From contig JBBCAW010000019.1 in assembly GCA_051382295.1 (NCBI GenBank), positions 1 to 45,361 on the forward strand: a stretch of DNA of 45,361 bases, written 5' to 3'. A program made the position numbers. Below, piece by piece: positions 3,001 to 12,000 of this stretch. Each line of letters opens with the position of its first letter. Positions within the stretch are counted from its first letter, which is position 1. This stretch comes from Bdellovibrionota bacterium FG-1 (lineage in GTDB: Bacteria > Bdellovibrionota > UBA1018).

Positions 3001-6000
3001 ACGGAGCCGTGGGTCTGGGTTTCGTGTGTTGAGCAAGCGTCCAAAAGAGATCAACGGTACGTACTTTGAAAAGCTTGAGTTTAACTACGTATCAGTTGAC
3101 CCTTTTGGCGTAAAATCTACTTATCCACGCACTGAATACAGTAATGTTAATTTCTCACTTACCGAGGACTGGCCTTCTATTGAGTTGCGTGATTGCTCCC
3201 GGGGATCCGCTTCGTTTGGACGGCGTTTGCGAGAATATCTAGGTGTACAATTTAATATTAGTCGCGTTGAAATTGAAGTTTTGGATTGGCTCGATCATAT
3301 CGAAAGAGCGGTAGAAGATTTCGGGGTCTTATCTCTTGATATTGATTCTGTTGAGTTGTCCGCACACGCTAGTGGAATCGTACGAATTACTAGCGATCAA
3401 GATGTTCGGAGAGAATTGAAGTCTTTCGTGAGAGATCGCCAGTATAGGGTGGTAAAGGCTTTGATTCGGTGGAATTTTAATTCTGGTGGCGTTACTTCCT
3501 GTGAATTACGAAGAAATGGCTCAGTTAAGTTTTTGGAAGACTCAAGTGAGCGCACTGTTGGGGTAGTGCGTGAAGCGCTTAAGATGTCCAGAAAAGTGAT
3601 TAGTTAGTTTGGAAGATTTGCAAGTAAAGCAGGCGCCCAGACACGTCCGCAGAAAAAGTTGGTGTCTGGTCGATGCGACGGGATTCGACACTCCGATCCT
3701 TTGGTCCCCCTCGCCCAAAAAAACGGTGCAAATTGATCTCGGAGTCTGCAATAACCATTGATATCGAACCGCGAAAAGCCGAAATTTCGGCAGGACCTAC
3801 ACTCATGAGAATGACACGTTAAACGGTGGTTCCCAGGGTACGTTTCACGGTTTGAGCCGCGTGGCGGTCAACACGCAGCGCTCCGCCCGACTTCTTGCCC
3901 AATAACAAAGTACGGATACGATGAAAAGTACGACGTTTTCCGGTAAAAGCAGAACCCATCCTAACTCGGCGATCACGTAACCTGTGTACATCGGATGCCG
4001 AACCCATCGATAGACGCCTTCTCGGCATTCTTGACCGCGAAGTCCTGGTGAAACGCCCACTCTTGTCCCCAGCTCGATAGTGGCAAGTGTCGCCAGGAGA
4101 AAGCCAACTACAGCTCCGAAATCCGCAATCATGATCATCCATGTGGGGACTGGAACTCTCGGTACGGCATAAAAAAGCGGGAGCGCGGTCGAAATGTAGG
4201 CAAGGGCCGCCTGCCTGATGGTGCCCTGCTTAATGGCCGGTACCCTCGCTAAAAGAAAGACCGACCACAGCAAGTCTCTGAAGAAGAGAAAGGCATAAAA
4301 CAGACGTTCCGAATGGGACCATCGCCACCCGGCGATGGCTGCAAACGCCATCATCAGTAGAGCACCACCCATCCCTGATAAGTCGTTCCTGAGCTTGCTT
4401 TGCAGCCATCGCATGATCGTCATGATTTTTACCTAGTGGCGGGGCATTAGGGACCCGGGTTACCGCCACCATCGCGGTCCATCAGGATCATCGCGCCCAC
4501 CTTACCGGCGAAGACCGGACTTATGCTCTGAATGGCGGCTCCTACCGCAAGAATAATCGCGAACACTTGAAGTACTCGTTTCATACATCATCCTTTTTGC
4601 TGTCGATGATTAATTCTTCGATCAGACCTGCGACAGCATCAGGTTGATCAAATGTGACAAAATGTCCGGCCCCAGCAACTAACCTAAATTCTGCGCCAAT
4701 CATACGCGCGTCGGTCTCAAGCGTAGCCGGTGGAAGCATGAGGTCAAGTTCACCGGCAATGAAATATTTTGGAATCGAGAGAAGCCGGAGCATTTCGACG
4801 AAATCAATCTTGGGGGCTCCTTGACTGAGAACCGGGAGCACTTGCTCGAACGTCTTCCAGGAAACAAGATCAGCCGTTAAAAGACGCTTTCCGCGTTCGA
4901 CCGTGGCGGGCGAAAAATACAACAGGCCGTAGCTTGAAAGTAACCGCGTCAAGGTTTCTCGCGATGGATTTCTCTCCCACTCAACGTCGGCTGCGCTGAG
5001 TTCCGGCGTCATGTACTTGAAATATTGCTGGACCGCGACGGCATATGCAGCGGCGCTAAAAGGGGTTGCGATGGCAATGAGGCCGCCCAATTCAAGGCGA
5101 TTACGCTGAGCGAGTTGTGCGCAAAAAAGCGCGCCAAAGGAGTGTCCGCATAGAATCAGGGGACCCTTGAGTTCCATCAGTGTCGCCTCGATGGCGCTCA
5201 CCACGGAGTCAAAGGTTGGATTCGCGGCCTCTTCCTGCTCGCCACTCCCCGGCGTATCTACATATGAAATATTGAATGAACGCGCGAGCACGTCCATTGA
5301 ACGAAGTGTGGCGGAACTCAGGCCGGGTCCGCCCGGAATAAAACAAATCATCGGCCGTGCCCCGGCGTGTGGATGGGAACTCCGTATTTGGGTCAGTTTC
5401 GCTTTCACGTCGGACCTCCTTGGGGATCAATAGAGAGCAAGGGCCGTCCGGGCTTGGATAGCATCGCGTTTCCGATTCCGAGTTTTTTGATCCACCGAAA
5501 AAGCGTGGTGGGATGCATGGATAAGGACTTGGCGGCCGTTGTCCTGTTTCCGTGGGTTTTTTCTAACGCGGTCAGAATCTCCGTTCGGATCTGTTGATAG
5601 CGCGAGATCAACGGACTCGCTTCGGCGCTGGTGGCGGGGGTACCGATGCCTGACAAGGCTTCGCGAACGGTGTCGCCGTCCAGTTCTCGCTTGTTGGAAA
5701 GAATCACGATCTTCTGGATCACGTTTTGAAGTTCACGCGTATTGCCGCGCCATGAATGCGCAAGGAGCGCATCAATGCCACTCGCGCGGACGGCGAAAGG
5801 TTGATCTCCGCAGAGATCACTCAAAAAGGTTGTCGTGTAGTATTCGATGTCTTCGGGGCGTTCGCGAAGAGGGGGGAGGTGGACTGTTACTGCGTTGATC
5901 CGTTGAAGAAGATCCAGGCGGAAATCGTTACCTTTAACCATCTCATCAAGATCTCGATTGGTGGCGGCGACGAACTGAACATCAACTTTCATGGAGCGCT

Positions 6001-9000: not shown

Positions 9001-12000
9001 CTTTGCTTGCTTGATGGCTTCGCTTTCATCCATCACCCGCAGCACCATTTCGTCAATTTTAGGACGATCCGCATAATAGGTGCCGGCTCGATCGAGCACG
9101 ATGTCGGTGTAGCGTTCATGTCGTTCGGTTCTCATATACTTGAATGGACCGGAGCCAATGGGTGCTTTAAAAAAATCAGGGTGCTCTACCTCGCGCGGTA
9201 AAATCTGCGCGGTTGCGCCAGCAAGTACTGATAGAAATGGTGGAAAGGGGTATTTTAATACAATCTCGACTTGATCAGCGCCAATGGCGCGAAGGCCGGC
9301 GACACTGGCGGTCTTACCTTGGTGAAATGCCTCTGCTCCCATAATGCAGTCATAATAGGTGAAGACCTTGCTGTTCGGAGCGACGACTCGGGTCAGGGAG
9401 CGGACCACGTCTGAGGGCGTGATCGCCTCGCCATTTTGGAAAAAAATTCTTTTTCTGAGCTTGAAATGAAGAGTGCGCCCATCTGGACTGGTATTCCATG
9501 ATTCGGCGATAGCGCCATGAAGATCGAGGTTGGCGGTAAAACTCAGGAGTCCGTCATAAATCAATTTGGAAACCAAAAGGGAGGCGGTGTCGTCCATCTG
9601 GGCGGGATCGAGTGATGGGGGTTCGGCGTAAAGCGCTTTGACGTAGCGTCGAGCCGGGGCCTTCGTCGTGGCCGATCCGTGACCTATAAAAGCAACCGCT
9701 GTGATTCCAAGAATCACGCCCGCCGCGCTAAAAACAATCCTCTTTTTCTTCTTTTCCACTGATTACCTCCTTTTGCCATTCGGTGTATTTGCGAGGAACG
9801 AGCCAAAAATGACAATGCGTTTTTACCATGAATCCATATACCTGACAAATTTATTCTAGTAATGTTAGATAATAATTAAATAGCCGTTATTTAAGGTATT
9901 TCTGGTTAACGTTCTGGGTGGTCTTTGCGGTGGTTGATCGCGCCCGGGTTTTGCTGCTCATCGGTCGAGATCAGCGTCGATTCAAAACCATTGCGGCTTT
10001 TGTGACGGATCGACCGCTATAGTAGCGCTATACCGCTATTGTTTTTACTTCGACTTCGATGCGGCCCCTCATTTTAACTCCCGGATTTAATTCATTTCTC
10101 GTTTTCACGTAGTCCTTTCGCGTTTTCATTCGAACGTTGGCACGGACTTGCTTTGAAAGAAGGTGAGGACTGCGAGGGTCGCCGTCCAAATGAGTAAACT
10201 GTTGGAGGTTTTAAAATGAGATTTTCTACTTGTCCGCGATGCGGGGACCAGGGCTACGAGCGGCTCTCGTCTCACGATTACTGTGTAAGTTGTGATTATA
10301 GCCCGGACTTCGACATGACTGTCGATCTGCCTATTCCGTTTTGGGCGCAAAAAGCCGTCGATGATCCCAAAGATAGTCTCTTCACCCTCATCAATGCGGC
10401 GGCGATAGCCGCAGTCGCTTGAGCAATAACCCGGAGGAAAATATGAATAAAGTAGCTGGGCTAACAACCCCTGAGTTTCAGGAGATCGTCACCAAATTGA
10501 TCCAGGCGATTGGTCGCGCAACCCAAAAATCCTGCAAGACCATTTGGGGCTGGGTCGTTCGTGGCTTTCGCCATGTGGAGCGTAAGTGGGCAGAATCAGG
10601 CGAGCTAGATCGTCGTACCCAGGCCAGGATGCACGATTATTATGCGCGGAGTTTTCATCACCTTCGTTGCGCTTTGTGAGCACGAAAAAGGAGATTTGCA
10701 AATGAACCTCATGTTGATTTTGGTGATCGTGTTGTCGCTCTCTGTTTTGGGTGCCTGTACCACGGTGCCGGCAAAAGTTGAGCATTCAAGGACGCTGGAT
10801 GATTCGTTTTTTCATCAAGTGGGACGTTTTGAGCGCTGAGACTATTGAGCCGGGTGGATCATTGGATTCGAGGGGTCGGCTCAGGGATGAGCCCTTTTTG
10901 TTTGCTTTTTTTTTAGGGGGTATAGCGTGAGTTTTGGCGATGTTCAGGCGAACACAAAAACAGAAATAGGAGCGGGATTGGGTATTACGATTCTGCTGGC
11001 GGTGGTCGGTGCGGTTTATGCGGTCGGGCACTGGGATACGGTAACCGGCGCCTATCGCTTGCTATCGATGTTGGTGGAACGCGACGCTCAGCTGGTCATC
11101 GCGGGGATGGGGGGCGCGCTGTTAGGCGCCGGCGCGGCGGTTTGGCGGATTGCCATGCTGGTAGGCCGGGTCAATGGAGATAAGTCAGTGGGGGCGGCTG
11201 AAAATAGCAATCAGAGCGGCACCGGGAGAAATACTTCCCTTTTAGAATTCCAGGCCATGGGGCTGTCCGTTTTGATTGCGCTGGGAACCTATTGGCTTCT
11301 TGCGTATGTCTGGCTCCCTGGAAAATTGAACGTGTTTCACGTTAAGGGAGCGTATCTCCATTTCCTCCTCGATCAATTCTTTCGAATAGCGTTTTCAATC
11401 TTCGCACTCATTCCTGGCTATTTAGTGGGTCGTTCGCCGTTTTTAAGGTCTCTGCTCAAATTATCGACTGGGCGAATGCCAAAGTTTCCCAGACTTTTGG
11501 ATGCAATTGTTTTAGGTTCCGTGAATGAGCACAATTTAGAGGAAAAACCCAGCTGGGTGATTCTTGGGTTGCGCGGCCTGGTTGGGAACATTCTTGTTAC
11601 TGGCAGCATTGGGAGCGGCAAGACTTGGGGCACGATCTTCAGTTACATCCGTCAGATCTTGACCAATTTTCGGATTCGACCTTCGGTTCTGGCTATTGAC
11701 CCCAAGGGTAAGATCGCCAAGCAGATTAAAGTCATTGCCGAAGAGCTTAAGATGGAAAAGTTCATCCTTCACATGAAGCTCGATGGTGACGTGACGTTCA
11801 ATCCGATCTATCAACCATCGGCGCTCAAATCAGGGGCCTTCTCGGATATCGCTAAGATGGTGCGGTCAGCGGCGGTCAATTACATGGGGAAATCGTTTGA
11901 TTCCTCTTTCTGGGAGCAATCCGCCGCCACGCTGGTAAAAAACTGTCTCATCTATTGCGCGGCGACCAAGGGCTATTACACGCTTAATGATCTCTACACC

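Follow-up and report, generated by a model that had tools for sequence, protein, structure and literature searches.

Control of conjugation by peptides has mainly been described in Firmicutes (Gram-positive), where it works via imported peptides and RRNPP receptors. Among diderm bacteria, the conjugative Ti plasmids carry TraI-TraR, in which the activator drives the signal gene as well as the transfer genes, using an acyl-homoserine lactone, a cytoplasmic LuxR receptor and sigma-70 promoters. In LuxP-LuxQ-(LuxU)-LuxO of Vibrio, the output passes via a sigma-54 activator and is switched off by the signal. The agr and ComQXPA systems are defined by a tailoring enzyme, AgrB or ComQ, and by an HPK10/LytTR or NarL-type regulator. 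Roles in C-terminal methylation are known for ICMT/Ste14 and LCMT1/PME-1.

In the accessible part of the cited papers, RapI-PhrI of ICEBs1 and Rap-Phr of pLS20, both from Bacillus, are described as relying on a Sec-exported precursor that is trimmed to a short, conjugation-controlling peptide (PMC6540685; PMC8055654). For the PrgZ/cCF10/iCF10 system of pCF10 in Enterococcus, the same excerpts mention an element-encoded family-5 solute-binding protein (SBP) for such a peptide (PMC6540685). In Vibrio, an SBP in complex with a sensor kinase detects the quorum signal of LuxP-LuxQ, and CBP-ChiS is the one pair of a family-5 SBP and a sensor kinase described (both from the accessible text of PMC8050422).

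Here, we describe a cassette in Bdellovibrionota bacterium FG-1, located in a 45,361-nucleotide stretch of DNA that was analysed as a whole (the window). With a probability of roughly 0.68, this cassette serves a family of conjugative elements in Bdellovibrionota as their cell-to-cell signalling switch and transfer regulator. A literature search of titles and opening abstract text, with subscription papers outside its scope, returned no description of this system.

A conserved six-gene operon

The operon is real and conserved. Its six ORFs are found on the minus strand where the initial annotation had placed them, and their packing is operon-like, with gaps of 0, 5, -4, -4 and 23 nt.

8182..9759, minus strand: family-5 SBP, 525 aa, with an N-terminal hydrophobic signal; D417 corresponds to DppA D408 and L367 to DppA R355
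6799..8181, minus strand: histidine kinase, 460 aa; two transmembrane segments flank a periplasmic domain of ~115 aa; invariant H258, N and G boxes
5405..6793, minus strand: sigma-54 activator, 462 aa, receiver-AAA+-HTH, with a GSFTGA variant of GAFTGA and the helix MHPTTLFRW
4581..5408, minus strand: alpha/beta-hydrolase, 275 aa, with GGPG, S90, D222 and H249 and no signal peptide
4447..4584, minus strand: 45-aa precursor with a leader containing an invariant Gln19, a variable linker and a C-terminal N-P-G-P core
3845..4423, minus strand: membrane methyltransferase with an ICMT fold, 192 aa, in which HPMY and R177/E181 align with H126-Y129, R163 and E167 of Ma-ICMT

Pfam assigns SBP_bac_5 (1e-51), HATPase_c (2e-14), Response_reg plus Sigma54_activat (5e-52), Abhydrolase (9e-14) and ICMT (7e-9) or PEMT (4e-7) to the larger proteins, and has no match for the precursor ORF. 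Relatives of the hydrolase occur in 33/400 other genomes of the phylum at E<=1e-15 and in 31/400 at E<=1e-25, the latter being the count reported before. All 46 loci with genes for the SBP, kinase, hydrolase and methyltransferase also have the precursor gene, which always sits between those of the hydrolase and the methyltransferase; 6 of the first 29 relative hydrolase loci have no precursor and show other gene contexts. No match was found on viral contigs searched with the ICMT alignment, nor among PLSDB plasmids searched with the SBP at 1e-40. The cassette on C120, to which the operon had been likened, has only the general layout in common with it, as its precursor is different and its enzyme is of the YcaO type; no tra match lies within 12.5 kb of that cassette, on a contig of only 17 kb.

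The precursor, the two enzymes and the binding protein

The 58 distinct precursors range from 37 to 123 aa. They include a class of about 115 aa (115-118 aa), likewise ending in PGI, to which 10/23 precursors of the first 29 relative loci belong, so that the length of 37-56 aa claimed earlier does not hold throughout. Pro is present at position -3 in 58/58 precursors, with PGI in 40 and PGP, formerly seen as a peculiarity of this copy, in 3. This C-terminal motif is far above chance: among 4754 long-ORF ends of the same genome, Pro is at -3 in 267 and PGI occurs in 1. In the leader, Gln19/20 is found in 58/58 precursors, and Ala13, Ala16 and Leu12 in 45, 39 and 41 of 47 aligned ones, respectively, whereas the signal peptides of the SBPs encoded alongside have no invariant column. 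The sequence pattern fits a Sec-type precursor with a short C-terminal core that would be freed by processing, with a likely signal-peptidase site after residue 26. An ESM Atlas search with one long precursor gave a single weak match (0.75) and no model. A fused precursor-ICMT entry (P0060) looks like a frameshift and was left out. A model in which the C-terminal core is the signal leaves the invariant Gln19 unexplained.

Enterococcal pheromones derive from signal peptides. In the same circuit, with the same output, the signal could likewise be a fragment of the leader surrounding Gln19, or the hydrolase could join leader and tail; the P-x-x tail would then be only a processing tag. The conservation of the leader agrees with this, as does the putative SBP pocket, which is hydrophobic and does not track the residues of the C-terminal core. 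However, while linker length varies from about 12 to 95 aa, the distance of Pro from the stop stays at exactly three residues, in keeping with an enzyme or receptor that recognises the free C-terminus, and ICMT-family enzymes are established to target C-terminal carboxylates. The residues flanking Gln19, moreover, vary more than expected of a ligand, and we consider a leader-derived signal unlikely.

The methyltransferase has the HPxY and RxxxE motifs and the fold of ICMT, with 36.5 bits for Pfam ICMT (cut-off 24), profile matches to 4A2N, 5VG9 and 5V7P at 3-4e-5 and Ma-ICMT as best fold match (Z 11.5, rmsd 3.2, 156 aligned). The NCBIfam isopcys_mtase score of 29 bits is below the cut-off of 160, and Foldseek, without a match at E<=0.001, ranked steroid reductase 7c83 above ICMT (VIA Z 9.4).

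The hydrolase is a putative esterase or peptidase with a GGPG oxyanion loop and a Ser-Asp-His triad, of which G26-G29, S90 and H249 are invariant and D222 is present in at least 90%. Its best sequence match is tricorn factor F1 (prolyl aminopeptidase, S33; 3e-12), besides a PME-1 profile match (1e-7) and 31 bits for TIGR01250 (cut-off 168). After the catalytic Asp, the consensus G-x-x-D-x-L-L-P lacks a conserved Glu. A true proline iminopeptidase was ruled out on this ground, the missing residue being E245 of F1, which we take to be the amine-binding Glu.

As to the SBP, D417 is found in 92/93 rows (1 gap), and position 367 holds Leu in 90, Ile in 2, Arg in 0 and a gap in 1. According to the accessible part of the source, D408 of DppA binds the peptide amine and R355 the carboxylate (PMC8566422). 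The presence of Leu in place of this Arg, a correspondence drawn from a single HMM alignment in a gappy stretch, fits a methyl ester produced by the ICMT-fold enzyme. In DppE-type SBPs, some of the anchor arginines are missing as well. The SBP is a probable co-receptor of the kinase: the modelled complex scores 0.61 versus 0.01 for the best control, with at least 93% of contacts agreeing between runs, a partner pLDDT of at least 77 and the invariant D67 within the interface. The complex passed the mark set for such models, which was reached by 116/157 solved and 2/215 mismatched pairs, counts that are only rough for our own alignments. No ABC permease or ATPase family was detected among 296 neighbouring ORFs.

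Bacterial ICMT/PEMT relatives modify lipids and small thiols. The SBP ligand might be no peptide but a metabolite, lipid-derived or methylated, that the ICMT-fold enzyme produces together with the hydrolase, with the small exported protein as an accessory, for example in exclusion or anchoring. In line with this, the methyltransferase matches NCBIfam LmtA (2e-4), the reductase fold comes close behind ICMT, the hydrolase structure is nearest to esterases, and family-5 SBPs bind sugars and metals too (accessible text of PMC8050422). Such a ligand is nevertheless quite improbable, as the amine-binding Asp of the SBP is invariant, the nearest solved SBPs bind di- and oligopeptides (PrgZ 4FAJ matches at 2e-31), and the precursor gene, between both enzyme genes in every complete locus, keeps only its two ends.

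Predicted promoters, a candidate enhancer and the conjugative element

Upstream of the cassette, the plus strand carries a conjugative element.

9790..9806, minus strand: cassette sigma-54-type -24/-12 promoter, with the canonical 10 nt from GG to GC
10013..10039, no strand assigned: palindromic enhancer candidate, core AGTAGCGCTA at 10021-10030, between two divergent promoters
10137..10152, plus strand: transfer-side sigma-54-like promoter, with a non-canonical 9 nt from GG to GC
10216..10679, plus strand: start of the transfer side, with two small ORFs, of which the first encodes a Cys-rich, Zn-ribbon-like protein of 68 aa
10927..27170, plus strand: transfer operon with a fused TraD(T4CP)-TraU, a PilB-like ATPase and TraE/K/B/V/C/G-like proteins
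27424..31889, plus strand: MobC, relaxase and tyrosine integrase of the same element

The activator has the features of an NtrC-type sigma-54 enhancer-binding protein, with a -24/-12 promoter and an upstream enhancer sequence present, and the genome encodes its own RpoN. The sigma-54 promoter proposed earlier for the operon is not significant as a single site (18 loose -24/-12 patterns in the window versus 12.9 expected), but a matching site recurs upstream of the SBP gene in 15/19 loci. Textbook sigma-54 promoters are not known to tolerate the 9-nt spacer of the transfer side. The initial annotation, in which an exported, probably tailored peptide is linked with a dedicated SBP, kinase and sigma-54 activator, gains support from the SBP-kinase model, the amine-binding Asp of the SBP and a variant locus (L127) with a Sigma54_DBD gene inside the cassette.

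In the genome (4.4 Mb), the core of the enhancer candidate occurs without mismatch at 3 sites, one of them between the cassette and tra promoters; it is exact in 10/172 loci, adjoining cassette or tra promoters where checked. When one mismatch is allowed, the core is no more frequent within the window than expected by chance, and a noisy k-mer scan based on kin enhancers places the palindrome outside the top 15. In 18 loci with their own tra upstream region, the best 170-nt match to the cassette upstream region precedes tra in 12, two of these being marginal (L076, 12 vs 11; L103, 13 vs 12), ties in 3 and misses in 3; L091, with its cassette promoter off the contig, was left out. The best-matching 170-nt segment lies 916-1042 nt before VirB2 in 10 loci, and the cross-matrix of cassette and tra upstream regions is class-specific. 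Enhancer type follows the recognition helix of the activator (SEAT 21/23, H[FIY]ST 5/6, HKxT/HITT 4/7, DYST 2/2), in loci that are kin and with motifs derived from a subset of those very loci; no cross-class match between helix and enhancer was seen. The transfer operon is thus a predicted target of the activator.

With a T4SS, coupling protein, relaxase and integrase, the window has the features of an integrative conjugative element, although no att pair or tRNA was found in it, and the contig may stop short of the element's left end. A sequencing error in the TraD-TraU fusion was ruled out, as three other contigs have the same fusion. Relatives of the Zn-ribbon-like protein are encoded at the start of other tra operons. 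T4SS genes are found by Pfam in 10/19 cassette loci, and tra genes lie no more than 10 kb away in 26/46 complete loci, or 19/29 where the locus spans at least 19 kb, compared to 0/15 other SBP5 loci of the FG-1 genome. The other 20/46 complete loci show none within the available DNA (short contigs, or decayed elements). The conjugation genes, noted initially as a mere caveat of mobility, are indeed present, and the evidence points to them as the likely circuit output. An alternative, the closest to the initial annotation, makes the cassette mere cargo of mobile elements, which as a general autoinducer loop would govern host genes, or only itself, and not transfer. This is as improbable as a non-peptide ligand. 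In its favour, many loci lie amid cargo such as restriction, CBASS, metal and umuDC genes and show no tra gene within the available DNA, two (L080, L109) keep five cassette genes without the activator, L080 beside envelope-polysaccharide genes, and the tra backbone of the window differs from that of relatives. Yet tra operons far from the cassette are preceded by a second copy of its enhancer, in five or more sequence classes, and in the FG-1 genome the core is rare (3 sites) and lies once between both promoters.

Proposed circuit and comparison with known systems

In the preferred reading, i.e., a signalling switch that controls transfer, the SBP very probably docks on the periplasmic domain of the kinase and would act as a receptor rather than an importer, judging from the model and the gene order. 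It is highly likely that the activator, together with host RpoN, acts from an enhancer specific to its lineage and drives both the cassette operon and that for transfer; binding is inferred from DNA sites that both operons have in common. The signal is likely the C-terminal Pro-x-x end (most probably X-Pro-Gly-Ile or Pro-Gly-Ile, here N-P-G-P), which host peptidases stalling at the X-Pro bond would release after Sec export. Even odds can be given to the enzymatic part, in which the ICMT-fold enzyme would methyl-esterify the C-terminal carboxylate of the precursor before export, and the cytoplasmic hydrolase would strip the ester from, or degrade, retained or re-imported signal, thereby resetting the loop. 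Methyl-esterification of the signal would explain why the receptor has no carboxylate-binding Arg. Because a sigma-54 promoter needs an active activator before any signal exists, we slightly favour a signal-OFF polarity, by analogy with LuxPQ and RapI-PhrI, with the kinase active when the SBP is empty and transfer shut down among dense carriers; signal-ON, an autoinduction like that of TraI/TraR, falls somewhat short of an even chance.

Two further ideas were considered. Residue -4 as a specificity code (pherotype) is not supported, as hand-picked SBP pocket positions do not track it and SBP pairs that are 68-84% identical differ at this precursor residue. A diketopiperazine route, by a post-Pro cut of Gly-Ile-OMe, would account for the invariant amine-binding Asp of the SBP no better than does a peptide that stays linear.

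More tentatively, and with less than an even chance, it can be proposed as a whole that these elements signal by a ribosomal tri-/tetrapeptide methyl ester (X-Pro-Gly-Ile-OMe), which the ICMT-fold enzyme would write and a dedicated esterase erase; that the signal is common across elements, helix and enhancer diverging to separate co-resident ones; that the elements carry several interchangeable sigma-54 sensing modules, the cassette being one of them; and that host RpoN reads the 9-nt-spaced tra promoter. If the circuit is true, diderm predators make the same decision as Firmicutes by sensing a peptide at the cell surface, through an SBP-kinase receptor and sigma-54, and a bacterial ICMT-family enzyme would have a specific peptide as its substrate. 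This hypothesis is cheaply testable, with candidate ligands of 3-4 residues, a soluble SBP and a named receptor, enhancer and target promoter, and the helix-enhancer pairs would be natural orthogonal sigma-54 parts.

As far as the accessible text of the sources goes, RapI-PhrI and Rap-Phr resemble the proposed circuit in having an element-encoded exported precursor that controls the element's own conjugation, but differ by an Opp-imported peptide, a cytoplasmic RRNPP receptor and a monoderm host, with no kinase, sigma-54 or tailoring enzyme. The six operon genes include no TPR/RRNPP family, the cassette receptor being an SBP plus a kinase. PrgZ, within the same limits of the sources, is, like the SBP of the proposed circuit, an element-encoded family-5 SBP dedicated to a peptide controlling conjugation; it feeds, however, a permease and the cytoplasmic repressor PrgX, and its peptides are unmodified heptapeptides. 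CBP-ChiS, as described there, differs in its chitin oligosaccharide ligand, in ChiS being a non-canonical DNA-binding kinase, and in CBP also serving a transporter.

LuxPQ-LuxO is similar in its SBP docked on a sensor kinase, which in the cassette is a modelled arrangement, and the activator matches the LuxO family at 2e-69 (235 bits, below the cut-off of 800). However, LuxP is a Peripla_BP_4 sugar-type SBP for AI-2, whereas the cassette has an SBP_bac_5 protein; LuxQ is a hybrid kinase with a LuxQ-periplasm domain, whereas the cassette kinase is orthodox; and the Vibrio system targets Qrr RNAs, has no peptide and is not on a mobile element. TraI-TraR is like the proposed circuit in that its activator acts on signal and transfer genes, but not in signal, receptor or promoters. 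The defining features of agr and ComQXPA are absent, as the cassette has ICMT-fold and alpha/beta-hydrolase genes and an NtrC-type regulator. Lastly, the methyltransferase has the fold and motifs of ICMT/Ste14, and the cassette, like the PME-1 system, includes an alpha/beta-hydrolase partner, but the precursor has no prenyl-Cys or CaaX motif; unlike in ICMT/Ste14 and LCMT1/PME-1, the proposed methylation substrate is a secreted bacterial peptide ending in Pro-x-Ile/Val/Pro.

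Organization of the cassette and of its genomic surroundings

The six genes of the cassette are encoded by tightly packed ORFs, with spacings of 0, 5, -4, -4 and 23 nt in the order from the periplasmic binding protein (SBP) to the ICMT-like protein. The gene families named in the initial annotation were borne out by family profile searches.

Features of the cassette (all identified as ORFs; family assigned for all except the 45-aa ORF)
8182-9759, minus: family-5 SBP
6799-8181, minus: histidine kinase
5405-6793, minus: sigma-54 activator
4581-5408, minus: alpha/beta-hydrolase
4447-4584, minus: 45-aa ORF (precursor)
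3845-4423, minus: ICMT-like protein

A conjugative element on the opposite strand occupies the remainder of the window. It comprises a fused TraD-TraU, a PilB-like ATPase, TraE/K/B/V/C/G-like proteins, MobC, a relaxase and an integrase; neither an att pair nor a tRNA was found in the window. The coupling protein TraD and TraU form a single ORF of 1014 aa (10927-13971). As the same fusion recurs on contigs C28, C35 and C63 of this genome (43-44% identity), it is a genuine trait of the element family. Downstream of the cassette and convergent with it lies a three-gene defence system (661-3607; GapS4a-like, PADLOC Hp1-Hp3 models). The region 31768-45278 encodes two serine recombinases, an MCM-like ATPase, a CHAT-TPR protein, a primase-helicase and a PolA fragment, and is probably a second inserted element.

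Linkage to transfer genes is also seen in related cassettes. Pfam searches revealed T4SS genes beside 10 of 19 cassettes, and similarity searches did so for 26 of 46 loci (19 of the 29 spanning at least 19 kb), compared to none of 15 other family-5 SBP loci in this genome. Relatives of the hydrolase occur in 33 of 400 other genomes of the phylum; 23 of the 29 loci fetched from this search contain a precursor, the other six being different contexts. An alignment search with the SBP yielded 63 genome loci (41-60% identity, mostly Bdellovibrionota by record title), the remaining 11 being unrelated SBPs, and 41 metagenome loci. In all 46 genome loci having SBP, kinase, hydrolase and ICMT genes, the precursor sits between the latter two. 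In a tree built with a quick method, loci labelled Bacteriovoracaceae and Pseudobdellovibrionaceae by record title group together in well-supported clades, as a mobile cassette would give.

Several variants of the cassette exist. A rearranged order (activator, SBP, hydrolase, precursor, ICMT, kinase) can be seen in full in L127 and in part in L138 and L106, the last titled Elusimicrobia. In L127, whose precursor ends in PTG, a gene with a sigma-54 DNA-binding domain (7929-9167) lies between activator and SBP, as if the element brought its own sigma factor. In protein P0084, an ICMT domain is fused to a kinase. A truncated cassette in a complete Bdellovibrionota genome (L031:1294-16405) holds activator, hydrolase, precursor and ICMT without SBP and kinase; it is flanked by serine recombinases and adjoins a drug-resistance-type gene cluster. 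L080, located amid envelope-polysaccharide genes, and L109 lost the activator and kept the other five genes, which may reflect either domestication or decay. L092 and L095 have a divergent SBP, kinase and activator together with main-group scores for hydrolase, precursor and ICMT, so that the sensing half was possibly exchanged against the signal-making half.

The genome of FG-1 itself carries two sibling elements with a sigma-54 activator and kinase cassette near tra genes, one accompanied by two methyltransferases and a YdcZ exporter (C28, L168:7050-13118), the other by MBL-fold and molybdopterin-domain proteins (C140, L169:5529-11049). These different cassettes suggest swappable sensing modules. 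In the C120 cassette (L167:3747-9368), which includes a gene for a YcaO-domain protein, the precursor is 55 aa long and unrelated to that of the window; it terminates with a Gly run and TCDF.

The precursor, its putative tailoring enzymes and the putative receptor

The 58 distinct precursors are 37-123 aa long and fall into two classes, one short and disordered, the other of about 115 aa, whose body is conserved in part and probably helical. Two residues are invariant, i.e., a Gln at position 19 (20 in one case) and a Pro three residues from the end. The C-terminus is PGI in 40 precursors, PGV in six, PTI in four, PGP in three, PTV in two, and PNV, PHI and PTG in one each. As a background, the ends of 4754 long ORFs of this genome include 267 with Pro at -3 and one with PGI. 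In most leaders, a site of small residues near 24-26 would fit signal peptidase I. Compared with the SBP signal peptides of the same operons, the leader shows tighter constraint, suggesting an enzyme that reads it.

The ICMT-like protein retains HPMY and R-x-x-x-E, aligned to H126-Y129, R163 and E167 of Ma-ICMT, residues with roles in SAM and carboxylate binding. Its structural model (pLDDT 88.5) best matched Ma-ICMT in a wide search (Z 11.5, rmsd 3.2, 156 aligned residues), a steroid reductase scoring Z 9.4; Foldseek gave the top rank to the reductase, without a significant E-value. The hydrolase, which has no signal peptide, contains a Ser-Asp-His triad and a GGPG loop. By sequence it is closest to proline iminopeptidase F1, but it lacks the Glu following the catalytic Asp; by fold it is closest to esterases. 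In the simplest joint reading, one enzyme would write a C-terminal methyl ester and the other would erase it. Two 85-aa precursors ending in EPGP (L066:8380-10058 and L125:14226-15864) are accompanied by a divergent ICMT and by a divergent hydrolase that has GGMG in place of GGPG, a hint that enzymes and substrate co-vary. Unlike these, the PGP precursor of the window is accompanied by ordinary enzymes.

The closest solved relatives of the SBP are di- and oligopeptide binders. D417, the counterpart of the amine-binding D408 of DppA (PMC8566422), is Asp in 92 of 93 SBP rows, with one gap. Position 367, matched in a gappy stretch to the carboxylate-binding R355 of DppA (PMC8566422), is Leu in 90 rows, Ile in two, a gap in one and never Arg. 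With this alignment of position 367, the pocket residues fit a peptide whose amine is free and whose C-terminus bears no charge. Hand-picked pocket positions did not vary with the type of tail or with the residue that precedes Pro, so that the signal is probably common to different elements. The 296 ORFs surrounding 19 cassette loci included no member of a permease or ABC ATPase family.

A complex model of SBP residues 36-520 and kinase residues 45-160 scored 0.61, which may owe to likeness to solved complexes, versus 0.01 for the best control. Of 157 solved pairs, 116 reach the mark for this score, as do 2 of 215 mismatched ones; these rates are only approximate with our own alignments. At least 93% of the contacts agree between runs (partner pLDDT at least 77), and the predicted kinase face comprises residues 61-76, including the invariant D67.

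Predicted promoters and enhancers

In 15 of 19 loci, the SBP gene has a -24/-12 site upstream; of the four loci that lack it, one has a kinase split by an IS and another has no activator. A palindromic array, situated some 100-220 nt upstream of the -24/-12 sites, has a sequence that tracks the recognition helix of the activator. Helix and enhancer agree in 21 of 23 SEAT, 5 of 6 H[FIY]ST, 4 of 7 HKxT/HITT and 2 of 2 DYST cases without any cross-class match, for motifs that were derived from part of the same loci and defined for these helices only.

Duplication of the enhancer was assessed in the 18 loci with a separate upstream region for the tra operon (19 less L091). The stretch most like the cassette upstream region precedes the tra operon in 12, two of them marginally, with three ties and three misses, and 10 of the best-matching stretches lie 916-1042 nt before VirB2. 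Cross-scores are class-specific, and at least five motif classes show the duplication, though the loci are kin. In the window, the cassette and tra promoters stand back to back with a single palindrome between them (core 10021-10030). Its core matches exactly at three sites of this genome, and 10 of 172 loci contain it. A crude k-mer scan of the window did not single out the palindrome, and with one mismatch the core is not above chance within the window; the case for an enhancer here therefore relies on the relatives.

In the sigma-54-like promoter on the tra side (10137-10152), GG and GC are separated by 9 nt instead of 10, a spacing shared by at least 13 genome loci from the SBP alignment; other tra operons have the 10-nt spacing or a variant -12. 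In this genome, which has one copy of rpoN, the 9-nt form outnumbers the 10-nt form by seven to three. Four of the other six 9-nt sites (C35:22724, C35:11310, C14:4012 and C58:50331) each lie 65-66 nt from a common palindrome, TCTCA-n4-TGAGA, on contigs with mobile-element genes. Many transfer operons of these elements are headed by a small Cys-rich, Zn-ribbon-like ORF (window 10216-10422; L169:11365-11709; L171:2490-2738; also L065 and L099), which had no family match and is possibly a downstream regulator.

Proposed mechanism and relation to known systems

The cassette is judged to be real and probably represents a new form of peptide-controlled conjugation. At the level of sequence, the operon, precursor ends, tra linkage, duplicated enhancers, helix-enhancer agreement and pocket residues are established; the SBP-kinase contact and the enzyme folds are modelled. 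The precursor would be exported and trimmed to X-P-G-I, the signal would carry a methyl ester, and the hydrolase, as an esterase, would reset the signalling loop, with the activator presumably binding to the enhancers. Our analysis leans slightly toward a signal-OFF polarity, because a sigma-54 loop needs an active kinase to start and because the nearest precedents, LuxPQ and also RapI-PhrI (PMC6540685), operate in this way. A signal-ON loop resembling TraI/TraR is nearly as likely.

No description of the cassette system was found among the titles and abstract openings of openly accessible papers. New are the long precursor class, the invariant Gln19, the receptor model, the class of 9-nt promoters and the argument, drawn from the pocket, for a signal capped at its C-terminus. 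The cassette does not belong to the RRNPP, LuxPQ or agr/Com families. It would resemble RapI-PhrI (PMC8055654) and pCF10 in purpose, and LuxPQ-LuxO and CBP-ChiS in the design of its receptor (PMC8050422).
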